DNA of 64,000 bases from the sequence record OQ990039; one strand, 5' to 3'. The notes beneath the pieces are model-generated. The model was given only the letters and a program-made list of their open reading frames with translations. It did not search any database and had not been told where the DNA came from. Each line of letters begins with the position of its first letter. Position 1 is the first letter of the stretch. The position numbers were made by a program, and so were the translations under genes. Below are positions 2,053-52,100 of this stretch, piece after piece. Source of the stretch: Escherichia phage SUT_E420.

Positions 2053-2754
2053 TCAAATTTTCATTTTTTCGATCATAGCTGCAACACAATAGCTTTCAAC
2101 TAAGGCATCAAATGCAGGATCATGCTTAACCGGATAGATCCCATAACGAATGGTGTCCATCTTCTCCATTTTAGCTTTTGCCCAGCTAATACCTTCAGCC
2201 TCTAGATCTTTGTAACTATAATCAGCTTGCATCCAGAGATTACGAAGAGATCGAACATTGCCCAAATTCCAGAATTTCCACGGAACTACCTCTTCATTGG
2301 TTCCAGCATGGAATGTGTTTGCAGAGTAGATAGTCATATCAAACTCTGGGCCATTACCATAATACAAAGCATTTTCGCCTAGAGCCAACTCCATAATATT
2401 TTGAGCCATAGAGAAGGCAGCATAGTTTGAGCCAAATTTATTAGTGCAATGATGTTTACCATTTTGGAAGGCAATCAGTTTTGGATTACGTTCCTTCATA
2501 GCTTCCATAATGTGAATAGCAGACGGGCTATTTTTAGCTTGATCCATCCAGAATGCTAGAGTAGATGCTGTAACTTTAGCACCAGAATTAAGCTGATCTT
2601 GTACATCCAAAGTAACAAATACTAGATCAGGGTCTTTATCAATTCCATGCATAGCCACAAAAGCGAAAGAAGGCATTGCGATATGAGTAGTACCACAATC
2701 TCCTGGAGTTCCCAGAGATTCAATATCTAGCATACCAAATGGTTTTACTTTCAT
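2053..2754 (-). CDS. Putative DEDD-type 3'-5' exonuclease (Rv2179c-like)
   Basis: 233 aa. N-terminal MLDIESLG (Asp/Glu exo motif I) and downstream His/Asp-containing segments. Assignment from motif resemblance only. Confidence 0.45.
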   Translation of the reverse strand: MKVKPFGMLDIESLGTPGDCGTTHIAMPSFAFVAMHGIDKDPDLVFVTLDVQDQLNSGAKVTASTLAFWMDQAKNSPSAIHIMEAMKERNPKLIAFQNGKHHCTNKFGSNYAAFSMAQNIMELALGENALYYGNGPEFDMTIYSANTFHAGTNEEVVPWKFWNLGNVRSLRNLWMQADYSYKDLEAEGISWAKAKMEKMDTIRYGIYPVKHDPAFDALVESYCVAAMIEKMKI

Positions 2755-2782: not shown

Positions 2783-3019
2783 TTAAAGAGCTGTCTCTTT
2801 AATAGACTCCCACTTCTTGGGGTCTTTAAAACCAGGGAGCATATCCTCACTGACATCCCAGTTCTCTTCCATAGAGAAGTCGGGCCATTCATCCCAACTA
2901 CCTTCCAACTCTTCATAACAGGTATCCATTACCTCATGACTAGAAAGTCGTGTATAATCCCTAGCTGACTTATGGGTGGTAGCACGGTTAAAATCATTCT
3001 TTGCCACAAAATTACGCAT
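2783..3019 (-). CDS. Hypothetical acidic small protein
   Basis: 78-aa ORF with GGAGA SD; Trp/acidic-rich C-terminal half. Confidence 0.4.
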   Translation of the reverse strand: MRNFVAKNDFNRATTHKSARDYTRLSSHEVMDTCYEELEGSWDEWPDFSMEENWDVSEDMLPGFKDPKKWESIKETAL

Positions 3020-3036
3020 AGTTTCTCCAAATAAGA

Positions 3037-3050
3037 GGGGCTTTCGCCCC
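3037..3050. terminator. GC hairpin (GGGGC-TTTC-GCCCC), candidate intrinsic terminator
   Basis: Perfect 5-bp GC stem with 4-nt loop and A/T-rich flanks, between two minus-strand genes. Confidence 0.4.
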
Positions 3051-3060
3051 CTGATTTAAA

Positions 3061-3276
3061 TCACTTGCCCAGCAGTTTAAGGATATTTTCCATAATAGTT
3101 TGGGCAGATTTTTCACTCTTGTTGGTTTCAGCCAACTTTAAAGCGAGTTCTTCCTGCTGTTTCTGAATATCAGCTGCGATTTTTTGATCAGCCTCAATAC
3201 GAGCTTGAAGCTCATCAGTGATAGTGGTAAAGGAAGCAACGATTTCAGTAACAGAACGTGGTTTCTTAGAGAACAT
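3061..3276 (-). CDS. Hypothetical coiled-coil small protein
   Basis: 71-aa ORF, AAGGAT SD, host-optimal codons. Confidence 0.45.
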   Translation of the reverse strand: MFSKKPRSVTEIVASFTTITDELQARIEADQKIAADIQKQQEELALKLAETNKSEKSAQTIMENILKLLGK

Positions 3277-3340: not shown

Positions 3341-3856
3341 TTACTTCGCTTTACGCTTGCGAGCTGGTTTAGCAGATTTACGAGCAGAATCACCAGTGAA
3401 CTTAATGCCTACACCGTAACACAGAGCGCGAACATTATCTTTACTATACTCTACGCCAAAGATATTTGGCTTAACAGAACCAAACTGTCCACGAGTATCG
3501 CGCAATACATCTGCTGTTGGTTTACGCTTCTGGTTAACTGCCTTCTCGTAGTCTTTCATAGACATACCATTACGAGAGAACAATTCAGCCCCAGCGTTGA
3601 AACTCAAAGATACTGGGACAGATTTGTGGCCGTAATTTTCTACATACATAACCATTTTGTAGGATTTACGGGTGGCATTTTTAGCTTTAGGCTTCTTACG
3701 AATCGGAGCCGGATTATTCAATGCTTGCGCAGCCTGAGCATCGGTAGGATGCTTACGCAGGTGACGTTCCAGACGAGCTTTGCGATTAGCCTCGGTCTGC
3801 GGGAAAGTTTTAACTGCCGGGGCTGCTTGAGTTTTTGCGTTTTTCTGCTTAGCCAT
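3341..3856 (-). CDS. Hypothetical basic protein (Lys/Arg-rich termini)
   Basis: 171-aa ORF, AAGGAAAAC SD, basic N- and C-terminal tails suggesting nucleic-acid binding. Confidence 0.5.
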   Translation of the reverse strand: MAKQKNAKTQAAPAVKTFPQTEANRKARLERHLRKHPTDAQAAQALNNPAPIRKKPKAKNATRKSYKMVMYVENYGHKSVPVSLSFNAGAELFSRNGMSMKDYEKAVNQKRKPTADVLRDTRGQFGSVKPNIFGVEYSKDNVRALCYGVGIKFTGDSARKSAKPARKRKAK

Positions 3857-3894: not shown

Positions 3895-3923
3895 ATTATA
3901 CGAGAATTTGAAGCGTTTAGCAA
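3895..3923 (-). promoter_or_regulatory. T5-type early promoter (minus strand)
   Basis: Reverse strand: -35 TTGCTA (3918-3923), 17-nt spacer, -10 TATAAT (3895-3900). Confidence 0.5.
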
Positions 3924-3931
3924 ATGAATTT

Positions 3932-4381
3932 TTAATTTATTAACTGTAAGCTTCTTTTAATTTCAGACCTTACTTGCATCAAAAGGACTCCTAAAGTATT
4001 ATCCCCGATGCCTCGGCAAACACCCCAATATGTATCTCCCCAGGTATTTCCTTCGATCAAAGTTGCATTTTCTGTTGCTAACAGTTTATCTCTTAAATCA
4101 GGAATTGCAAACTTTAATCGTAAAAGCTCTAGCATTACATCATCTTTTACTTTATCCCAGTCAGAGCGTAGGGTTAATTTACGTCCTCTACGTTTAGCAA
4201 CTCCTGCATTTAGGGAGCGGAGTACATGAGCTACATCATCTTTTTGGTCGGATTTCATAGCCTGAAAAGCATGTTCTACAGTATCAGCATGCCATATCTC
4301 ATTTAGATATTCGAAAGTAATTGGTGATAAATAAAAGTTAGATAAGAAACTATAAGTACCTTTAAATTCAGTAATCTTCAT
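3932..4381 (-). CDS. NADAR (YbiA-like) domain protein, putative ADP-ribose-processing hydrolase
   Basis: 149 aa. FLSNFY...HAFQAMK...EGNTWGDTYWGV matches NADAR/DUF1768 landmarks. Start overlaps the stop of the upstream ORF. Confidence 0.65.
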   Translation of the reverse strand: MKITEFKGTYSFLSNFYLSPITFEYLNEIWHADTVEHAFQAMKSDQKDDVAHVLRSLNAGVAKRRGRKLTLRSDWDKVKDDVMLELLRLKFAIPDLRDKLLATENATLIEGNTWGDTYWGVCRGIGDNTLGVLLMQVRSEIKRSLQLIN

Positions 4382-4662
4382 TTTTTACGCCCCGCATCTT
4401 TAGCCTCCTCGGCTGTATAGATATACTGATAAGCCCCTTTGGAGTAGGCTGGAGCAGTACACATTTTCTTACGCTCAATCTCTTCTTGAGCTTTTCTTTC
4501 GCGTTCCGCTAATTCTTCGTCCAAATAAACTAAACGTTGTTCTGGAGGAGGTGGAAGACGTGTTTCTGGCTCGCCAATATTAGCCTTTCTTATTTGACGA
4601 GGTGATTGTGCACGTTTTCTCAATGGTTTAAATCCTAATGAATTTGAGTTATAGATCCGCAT
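4378..4662 (-). CDS. Hypothetical protein
   Basis: 94-aa ORF translationally coupled to the NADAR gene; Pro-rich segment and charged helix. Confidence 0.4.
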   Translation of the reverse strand: MRIYNSNSLGFKPLRKRAQSPRQIRKANIGEPETRLPPPPEQRLVYLDEELAERERKAQEEIERKKMCTAPAYSKGAYQYIYTAEEAKDAGRKK

Positions 4663-8321: not shown

Positions 8322-8352
8322 TGATTTTCCTCTTTCTCACTATTTCAGGAAT

Positions 8353-8381
8353 ATTATAGCAAATCTGGTAGCGATTAGCAA
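8353..8381 (-). promoter_or_regulatory. T5-type early promoter (minus strand) upstream of nrdB
   Basis: Reverse strand: -35 TTGCTA (8376-8381), 17-nt spacer, -10 TATAAT (8353-8358). Confidence 0.5.
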
Positions 8382-8387
8382 GTAAAA

Positions 8388-8870
8388 TTATAAACTATCA
8401 AGCTCCAATAGTTTAGCATCGCGCCATTCTATAGCATCCTCTAATTCTTTGAATGTTTTAGTATGTTTTACACCTTTTCTAGCAATCTGGACTTGGTAAG
8501 ATCCGCTTGCTTTTTGGTGTATATTCTTAATACCTAACTTATTGTCTTTGTGCGCTCCGACATTCTTTCCATTGTTAAATCTATCAGATGCTAATAAATT
8601 AATTGCTCTATTATCATGACGTATTCTGTTGTCATGGTCTACTTCTTTTGGAATGTATCCATGAGTGATATAGAATGCTAGGATATGTGCATAGTATTTT
8701 TTACCCCTTACTTGCATTACTATATACCCTGAGCATTTTTCTAGAGAACCTGCTTCTTTGCCAGCAAACTTAGTATTAAAGGATTTATCTTCTCTAGGTT
8801 TGTGGGTAAAGATTCCAGTTTCTGGATTATAGTCAAATAACCCAGCTATTTCTTTATATTTTTCTTCCAT
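8388..8870 (-). CDS. HNH homing endonuclease (free-standing, between nrdA and nrdB)
   Basis: 160 aa. HGYIPKEVDHDNRIRHDNRAINL is a classic HNH motif; C-terminal AP2-like DNA-binding segment. Intergenic placement between functionally linked genes. Confidence 0.8.
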   Translation of the reverse strand: MEEKYKEIAGLFDYNPETGIFTHKPREDKSFNTKFAGKEAGSLEKCSGYIVMQVRGKKYYAHILAFYITHGYIPKEVDHDNRIRHDNRAINLLASDRFNNGKNVGAHKDNKLGIKNIHQKASGSYQVQIARKGVKHTKTFKELEDAIEWRDAKLLELDSL

Positions 8871-49108: not shown

Positions 49109-52100
49109 TTAAGAATTTCCTAATGTTTTCAGACTAGCACCGTTCTCATTCAGAGCTAATTCTACTGCGTCTCTTAGAGCACTACTATTACTAGAAGCAA
49201 ACTCTCTAAAACTTGCAGCATCCATAGCACTAATATTCAAGATGATAGGTCTTCCTGAAGTTGAGTTAGATGAAGTTTTTAGCTCATCATTAGGTGTAGC
49301 TTTCATAGGAATCATAGGGGTAACTACTTCTGTACCATGCTCACCCATTTGATAGCTAACCCCAGGGTACATATTACCACCCTCAGCACGAGGAACGAAA
49401 GAGTTAGCGCTACCTATACCTTGATCGCCACGAATATAAGACAGTTCACCTGCATTAGCAGACATGGACACATCTATATTCTTCTGACGTTCTCCTAAGG
49501 TTAGGTAACTAGTTGTATCCGCTCCAGAATCTGCAATACTTGACATACCAGATGCAGAAGATGCTTGAGCAAGAGCTAAGGCACCTGCCAAACCTGCCGC
49601 CACCATCAAAGGAATAGAGAACGGGTACGGTACAGCTGTCGCCGCTTGCATTACAGCTACTGCAGTTTGGATGATGATCTGCTTCTTAGCTGCGTCTTGT
49701 TGAATCTTCAACTTTTCAGCTTCTAGTTTCTTCAACTTAGCTTTAGATGCTTCTGATTTACCATCACGTTTCTGCTCTGCTGCAATAGCCTGATCAATTG
49801 CACTAACCTGTTGACTAGTACTATATTGAATCATAGAGGCCACAGTCTGCATACCTGCTGCGATCGTGGAAGTAGTGTCTAAAGACCCCATAGAGAACTG
49901 AATCATAGCATTGGTTAAATTACCCATGCTTTGAGCTACAGCAGTTGCTTCGGAATTTAACTCAGATAGTTTAGAAATTGCCTGATCATAAGAAGCCATT
50001 CTATTTCCCATATCAGCAAAATCTTTATCTTCTCCAGATAGTCCAGTTGTAGGAGTGTACACAGCACCTAAAGAAGATCCAACAGAAGCTTGCATCTCCG
50101 CATTTCTCTGTGCCCTTAAACCTGCTAGTTGTGCCCTAGTTTCAGCTATCTTTTTATTATATTCCGCTTGTGCCGCAGCATTACCTAATGTTTTCTGCTT
50201 TAAGTCTTCATATAATTTTAGCTGTTCCTGTAAGCGCTCCGCATTTCCCATTAATGGTTTAGCAGTAAATTGTCTTTGCTGTTCTTCCTCTCTACCAGCA
50301 GCCATTGAAGCAATCTGATCTTGGCGGAATTTCCAGATTTCACGTTCAATTTGGGCTTGAGCACGTCTAGACTGTTCCGCCTCTTTCTGTTTATCAGCTT
50401 GTTTTGTATACCATTCGTACTTCTCTTTTTCAATGGTCAATTCAAGATTTAACTGTGCTAAACGATACTGAGTATCTGTCATAGTACGGTTATTTAAGAG
50501 AGCTATCTCACGGTCTACACCCAGAATTTTATCTGTATAATCCTTAACTTTCTTCTGAGCTTCCATACCCTGATTGGTAAGCTTAAGTTTCTCCAGCTGA
50601 ATTTTTTCAATCTCTTTCTCAACAGCTTTATTTCCCTGATTAGTTTGAAGTACACGGCGTAAAGCAGCCTCTTGCTCTTCTAACTGTTGGAGTTCTAAAC
50701 GCCTACCGGCTTCCTGTGCTTTTTCTTTATCTTTAGTTTGGTTGTATACGTCAGCTATCTTCTGTTGAACTGCTAACTGGTTCTTAGTCTCATTACCGGT
50801 TAGTTTAACGTACTCAGATAAGGCCTGAGACGCAGTTTTCATTTCAGACAGAGTATTATAGCCTAGGTTAAGGTTTTTAACATACTCGTCTGCACTTTTA
50901 CCAGTACCTTGAGATAGTGATTCTATATTTTTTATAGCATCTGCTAAAGTAGCACTAGTCTTAGCAGCAGTATCTGTATTCTGAGCAACGTTCTGTATAT
51001 CATTAGCTAAGTCACTAGCAGTTTTCTTAGTCTGATTATATGCCTTTTGTTGTTCAGTTAGTCCTTTTAATACAGTAGAGTTAAAATCGTATACAGCATC
51101 AGGATCAGTAGTATCTCTCTGTAGATTAATCTGTTTCTGAAACTCTGGATTAGCTTTTGCAGCAGCAGCTCCAGCAGCCTGATAAGCTGATTTCCAAGCA
51201 TTGAGGTTCTCTGTAGAATCCTCTACTTCCTTACCGAGTCTAGTTACTTGTAGACCCATAGCTGCGGTTTCTTCTACAAACTTTTTATTAGCTTCGGAAG
51301 CACCCGCGGCTGCAATACCAACAGGAATACCTTCACCAACTTGACGTATAGCTAGTTTTGTATAGAAATCTGCTTGTTCCATTCGTTTATCGAACTCAGA
51401 TTTTAGCTTATTACGCTTATCAAGAGATTCCTTATACATATCTAGAGCTTTATTATAGCCTTCTTCAGAAGCAGCTAAACTTAAAGCAACAGCACCAACG
51501 TTGGTAGGGTCTATCTGTCTATTAGTTTTTTCTTGAGCTCTAGCTGCCTCAGCAGATATAGAAGCCTGAGATGTATAAAATACTGTGTTGATAGCATCAA
51601 TTACTGGCCCTAAATACTTAGCAGCAGCTTGTTGTATTTTTCTTAGTGCAGCATCTGCATTAGCAGCAAATTGCTCCCATGGAGTTGCACGTAGTACTTC
51701 ATCTAGATAGCCAAACCGTTTAGTAGATTCAGCAATTACTGCATTAGCATATGCTTGTTGCTTCTGGAAAGTGGTAAGACTATTAACATTATATGTTATA
51801 CCTGTGTTTGCAGCATTTAACTGTTTAACATAATCAGCGTATGCGTCATTAAGACGGATAGTGACACCAAGTTCATCCAGAAGTTCGATTTCTTGTTTAG
51901 ATACGCCCTTAATTACACGGTTAAGTGCATCAGTCATATCAACGCCAAGAACAGCAGCCGCACGACGAGCTACTAAACCAAATTTATTAAGTTGTTCAGC
52001 ATCAAATCCATAAGCAGATGCTGAAGATGCCTGTCTCATTGCTTCCTCAAAAGAAATAGCATATCCAGCAGCTTCTTGTAGTGATCTAGCAAGGGTCTGA

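Follow-up and report, generated by a model that had tools for sequence, protein, structure and literature searches.

The window analyzed here, a stretch of 64,000 nucleotides from Escherichia phage SUT_E420 (sequence record OQ990039), comes from a T5-like phage (Tequintavirus). Over its first 12 kb, the window shares 100% identity with Escherichia phages SUT_E520 and SUT_E1520 and 97 to 99% with many Tequintavirus genomes. The gene under study occupies positions 2053–2754 and encodes a protein of 233 amino acids with a predicted mass of 26 kDa and a pI of 5.6. The original prediction placed an open reading frame (ORF) at these positions without naming a strand; the frame is indeed present, on the minus strand, with an ATG start codon at 2754–2752 and a TGA stop codon at 2055–2053. 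A putative ribosome-binding site, the Shine–Dalgarno-like sequence AAAGGA, is seen on the same strand at 2761–2766, 6 nt before the ATG, and all ORFs that overlap the gene in other frames encode 51 amino acids or fewer. The ortholog in T5 is T5.087 (AAS77133/YP_006915.1), with 95.7% amino acid identity. Because the 57 nucleotide differences between the two genes entail just 10 amino acid changes (dN/dS = 0.043), we conclude that 2053–2754 is a real gene under purifying selection.

As had been proposed, the gene is located among small early genes, namely in the T5 early region near rnh, thy, frd, and nrdAB. The order along the minus strand is nrdA, nrdB, frd, thy, two small ORFs, rnh, a T5.090-like gene, an ORF with a NADAR domain, a T5.089-like gene, a 71-amino acid ORF, T5.088, T5.087, and T5.086. 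All Demerecviridae lineages examined, distant T5-like phages included, retain the block rnh–T5.090–T5.089–T5.088–exonuclease, even where the identity of the exonuclease falls to 25 to 34%. Within this block, the T5.090-like gene (4378–4662, minus strand) encodes a conserved C-terminal CTAPAYNKGAYQY..EEQAK.IGR stretch, and the T5.089-like gene (3341–3856, minus strand) encodes a DUF7022 protein with very basic termini and a conserved TEANRKARLERHLRKHP motif. A promoter-like site (TTGCTA-17-TATAAT; 3895–3923, minus strand) that precedes the T5.089-like gene was picked up in a consensus scan, in which shuffled sequence gave at least as many sites of this kind as the region itself. The GenBank annotation of T5 has an early promoter, P-H207, at the matching position.

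Several neighbors differ from T5. The NADAR ORF (3932–4381, minus strand; 149 amino acids) matches PF08719 with 78.8 bits and PHROG 1017, and gives a weak PADLOC match to PDC-M42C; it is missing from T5 and present in close relatives such as vB_EcoS_MM-1. NADAR enzymes undo the ADP-ribosylation of guanine, and this ORF could be an anti-DarT-type counter-defence gene. The 71-amino acid ORF (3061–3276, minus strand; PHROG 2380), which T5 likewise lacks, separates the T5.089-like gene from T5.088, and behind it comes a GC-rich hairpin, GGGGGCGAAAGCCCCT, whose T-run is weak (3036–3051, minus strand); together they look like a small accessory insertion with its own terminator-like element. Further along, the HNH homing endonuclease gene hegH (T5.095), found between nrdB and nrdA in T5 (49536–50060), is apparently missing at 8322–8420, as judged from the near-identical phage MM-1, in which a short ORF alone separates nrdB and nrdA. 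A tRNA scan found no tRNA genes in the window.

The exonuclease is widespread among related phages. Searches with tblastn detected the protein in 579 phage records, with at least 80% coverage in 573, and in a viral contig collection all 33 loci lie on contigs of 104 to 123 kb. A scan of 185,579 bacterial and archaeal species, with one genome per species, yielded a single weak, partial locus. Among 1.84 billion representative proteins, 12 clusters matched at E ≤ 1e-30 and 979 at E ≤ 1e-3, the latter figure reflecting the broad Rv2179c-like family. The T5.087 subfamily is thus essentially confined to T5-like phages.

A Pfam search assigned the protein to one family, PF16473 (3′–5′ exoribonuclease Rv2179c-like), with 33.2 bits and an E-value of 5e-8 over residues 8 to 180, a score above the curated gathering threshold of 27 bits. 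The same family is precomputed for most of the homologs. In PHROGs, the protein falls in phrog_255 "exonuclease" (E = 1e-51), and T4 DexA is found in the same two groups (PHROG 255, E = 4e-91; PF16473, 79.9 bits). A profile built from 29 homologs aligned to DexA with an hhalign E-value of 8.8e-5. NCBIfam gave no match for the exonuclease, and Pfam RNase_T (PF00929) gave none at E ≤ 1, so that any likeness to oligoribonuclease or RNase T is at the level of the fold.

An alignment-based AlphaFold2 model was obtained with high confidence (mean pLDDT 89.9, pTM 0.89) and has the RNase H-like α/β fold of DEDDh exonucleases. In a Foldseek search with this model, RNase T heads the list of PDB matches, and the BFVD list starts with T5-like orthologs, followed by phage proteins called exonuclease, DexA, or Rv2179c-like. 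T4 DexA shares the phage orthologous group of the protein and is the closest structure. It was fold comparison that linked the protein to DexA; sequence searches of the PDB, whether the protein or its family profile was the query, returned only designed armadillo repeats and PCNA, which are spurious matches.

The catalytic residues were located using an alignment of close homologs (A1) and a wider alignment that bridges to DexA (A2). The MLDIESLG sequence, to which the original prediction had drawn attention, corresponds to residues 8 to 15 (2733–2710) and forms part of the ExoI motif, MLDIESLGT (2707–2733, minus strand), with the catalytic residues D10 and E12, which are invariant in both alignments and equivalent to D7 and E9 in DexA. 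The ExoII motif, GNGPEFDM (2335–2358, minus strand), contains D139, which is invariant in A1 and A2 and equivalent to DexA D119; G133, N134, G135, and F138 are also invariant in A1. The ExoIII motif, KHDPAFDAL (2101–2127, minus strand), provides H211, the general base, and D216, in the columns of DexA H186 and D191; both are invariant in A1 and conserved in at least 90% of A2. All three acidic motifs of a DEDD enzyme (D10/E12, D139, and D216) are thus present. The H-x4-D form of ExoIII defines the DEDDh subclass. D7, D119, H186, and D191 of DexA have been labelled catalytic (PMC12153337), and the fifth residue is printed there as "E12," which we take to mean E9, since the glutamate of ExoI in DexA is residue 9. 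With the pentad intact, the fold confidently predicted, and purifying selection strong, the protein is very likely an active enzyme.

The similarity to DexA (PDB 8kel/8ken; Kang et al., NAR 2025, PMC12153337) is distant, the identity to T5.087-type proteins being just 15 to 18%, and for this reason the substrate preference of DexA cannot be transferred with confidence. The protein studied here differs from DexA by an extra β-hairpin at about residues 92 to 106 and a long helix at residues 181 to 199. The conserved W162 in the segment PWKFWNLG (2260–2283, minus strand), invariant in A1, corresponds to DexA W152. The DNA of T5 is unmodified. In the DexA structures, W152 stacks on the substrate base and D169 is the residue proposed for 5hmC recognition (PMC12153337). 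D169 seems not to be conserved in T5.087-type proteins: the protein studied here has D178 nearby, T5 and most relatives have a glycine, and the sequences cannot be aligned with certainty there.

Other members of the superfamily are less similar. Rv2179c of Mycobacterium tuberculosis, the founder of the Pfam family, is a shorter bacterial housekeeping RNase, reported to be an exoribonuclease acting on 3′ overhangs of dsRNA (Abendroth et al. 2014, cited in PMC10534295). The T5 protein scores just above the threshold of the Rv2179c-like family and is closer to DexA. RNase T, Orn, REXO2, and the ε subunit of DNA Pol III show 9 to 14% identity and carry other inserted elements, in keeping with the missing RNase_T profile match; RNase T and Orn, like DexA, are dimers. 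EcD, a bacterial DexA homologue of the "HREX" defence, and the CBASS-associated Cap18 are host defence proteins, unlike the T5.087 phage subfamily. The original reading as an Rv2179c/oligoribonuclease-like enzyme was right as to the enzyme family, but the protein is better described as a predicted DexA-like DEDDh 3′–5′ exonuclease. The exonuclease assignment itself is already known from RefSeq and public annotation, and current understanding of phage biology is unchanged by these findings.

Directly upstream of the exonuclease gene lies the ortholog of T5.088 (2783–3019, minus strand), which encodes an acidic protein of 78 amino acids (pI 4.6). Its N-terminus carries an invariant motif of 24 residues, (M)RN[FL]VAK[NH]D[FY]Nx[AG]x[TA]H[KR]SxxD[YF]xR, and an acidic EE[ND]W tail comes after it. 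In each of the Demerecviridae lineages checked, T5.088 comes directly before the exonuclease, and the observation extends to 4728–5732 in L034, 4763–4981 in L036, 4752–4937 in L037, and 4733–4942 in L038. The two are joined into one protein of 324 to 334 amino acids in Sugarlandvirus and in metagenomic phages related to it. The protein belongs to PHROG 4586, has a weak Pfam match to DUF7230, and also matches positions 75 to 147 of the exonuclease PHROG 255, whose profile spans both parts because they are fused in some phages. Both the gene fusion and the strict adjacency argue for a shared function of T5.088 and the exonuclease. As separate observations, the N-terminal motif of T5.088 matches further small-protein PHROGs (5724, 1359, and 15229) and may be a portable binding peptide, and T4 dexA.1 and dexA.2, considered as counterparts of T5.088, are unrelated and both fall in PHROG 1700. 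The upstream partner of T5.087 thus differs from that of dexA.

An AlphaFold model of the natural fusion protein P0025 assigned mostly low confidence to the N-terminal 90 residues, one helix excepted, and a docking mode for this module cannot be claimed from it. The N-terminal region of T5.088 is predicted to be mostly disordered, and the protein resembles a flexible acidic arm bearing a short linear motif more than a folded domain. An in-frame stretch upstream of the exonuclease, ending in ..HNKG before a TAA codon, was considered as a relic of a fusion; it is better explained by the Shine–Dalgarno sequence AAAGGA, which is translated in the fused versions, the Sugarlandvirus proteins reading through the equivalent stretch as ..NKG..M..

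In view of the family membership, the fold, and the intact catalytic pentad of the protein, of the purifying selection on its gene, and of the paired and sometimes fused T5.088, our preferred reading, to which we assign a probability of roughly 0.85, is that the protein is an Mg2+-dependent DEDDh 3′→5′ exonuclease, the Demerecviridae counterpart of T4 DexA, that most likely works on single-stranded DNA ends and oligonucleotides, probably together with T5.088. In DEDDh enzymes, the acidic residues hold two divalent metals, the histidine activates a water molecule, and a 5′-monophosphate leaves from the 3′ end. If the protein works like DexA, Pol III ε, and RNase T, residues D10, E12, D139, and D216 would bind two metal ions and H211 would activate the attacking water; nucleotides would be removed singly from the free 3′-OH of a single-stranded end and released as 5′-mononucleotides. 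We infer a preference for DNA, and the most likely job would be to trim or clear single-stranded DNA ends and oligonucleotides in replication, recombination, or DNA turnover. The exonuclease probably acts together with the small acidic T5.088, which it may physically contact.

The best-known role of DexA, the scavenging of nucleotides from host DNA, may not carry over to T5.087. The T5.087 gene reaches the cell only as part of the second-step DNA. Host DNA is destroyed within minutes through the pre-early gene A1 of T5, the breakdown products are excreted, and the nucleotides of the phage are synthesized de novo (bioRxiv 10.64898/2026.04.02.716235). Nucleotide scavenging is thus a poor fit for T5.087, and the processing of single-stranded DNA ends or oligonucleotides in replication or recombination, or the trimming of RNA together with RNase H, is more plausible. 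As host DNA is not recycled in T5 infection, finding a conserved relative of DexA in this phage implies a role of the family beyond nucleotide scavenging, and the conserved, sometimes fused T5.088 offers a concrete handle for finding that role. Our literature search returned no biochemical or genetic data on T5.087 and nothing else about this gene, and a PNAS 2026 paper on T5 makes no mention of T5.087.

The same fold and chemistry could serve a physiological substrate that is RNA, as in Rv2179c, RNase T, or Orn, with the enzyme trimming 3′ ends, removing primer remnants with RNase H, or degrading nanoRNAs. The activity reported for Rv2179c points in this direction; against it stand the best structural and profile match, which is the DNA exonuclease DexA, and the missing RNase_T match at E ≤ 1. 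We regard RNA as an unlikely principal substrate, though one with a real chance of being correct, and since many DEDDh enzymes cut both DNA and RNA, the difference from a DNA-directed enzyme is perhaps one of degree rather than a true alternative.

A more specific suggestion, which we put forward as speculative and rather improbable, is that T5.088 and T5.087 form a two-part module particular to Demerecviridae, in which the disordered acidic T5.088, with its invariant motif, would dock on a hub of the host or the phage and would steer the exonuclease to a particular single-stranded nucleic acid or gate its access to it. The target could be a replisome intermediate or an ssDNA or RNA component of a defence system, such as retron msDNA. 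If so, the role of the exonuclease would differ from the nucleotide scavenging of T4 DexA.

The original prediction also speculated that the phage enzyme might interfere with signalling-based host immunity. In its wider form, this idea would make the protein an anti-defence enzyme that acts on immune signalling nucleotides or on defence nucleic acid, and it could draw on the virulent-phage origin of the gene, which is essentially lacking from bacterial genomes (one weak locus), on the motif-bearing acidic partner, which could be an adaptor, and on the occurrence of the DEDDh exonuclease Cap18 and of DexA homologues in host defence contexts. Chemistry speaks against it, as DEDDh enzymes need a free 3′-OH, which cyclic oligonucleotides lack according to established enzymology. 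The known phage signal-degrading enzymes, Acb1 and Apyc1, have 2H-phosphoesterase or metallo-β-lactamase folds, whereas the protein studied here has a DEDDh exonuclease fold. Moreover, PADLOC gave no match for the exonuclease (nor for T5.088), the literature search found nothing to this effect, and the gene is a core gene that is syntenic with replication and nucleotide-metabolism genes across the sampled T5-like lineages rather than part of a variable accessory island. Interference with host signalling is thus unsupported, and the small chance that we leave to an anti-defence role mainly allows for linear nucleic acid targets, including retron msDNA.

GenBank AY543070 and many other T5-like records label the protein a zinc metallopeptidase (peptidase M14), a reading that has next to no chance of being correct, as the fold and profile evidence, with an exonuclease fold and no Pfam peptidase family even at E ≤ 1, rules it out. 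The GenBank note states that the protein was "identified by match to InterPro family IPR000834," and residues 149 to 159, HAGTNEEVVPW (2278–2310, minus strand), do fit a short zinc-carboxypeptidase pattern when searched as a regular expression. This pattern is kept in 8 of the 29 homologs, and H149 is not conserved. We take the pattern to be the signature tied to IPR000834, and a chance match to it is the likely origin of the name, which has spread to many T5-like GenBank records and UniRef entries. In RefSeq NC_005859 and a number of recent records, the name is already "exonuclease" or "3′-5′ exoribonuclease"; the metallopeptidase label is wrong and should read "DexA-like DEDDh 3′-5′ exonuclease."

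Annotations of two other genes on the minus strand deserve mention. The T5.085 ortholog (1108–1746; 212 amino acids) is called a "tail fiber protein" in PHROG 1491 and RefSeq, a label that looks doubtful because of the early-gene location and the lack of a supporting Pfam domain. The T5.084 ortholog (340–657; 105 amino acids), which T5 records call just hypothetical, matches Pfam PF20274 cREC_REC, the "cyclic-phosphate processing receiver domain," with 56.8 bits, a domain associated with RNA-repair systems.
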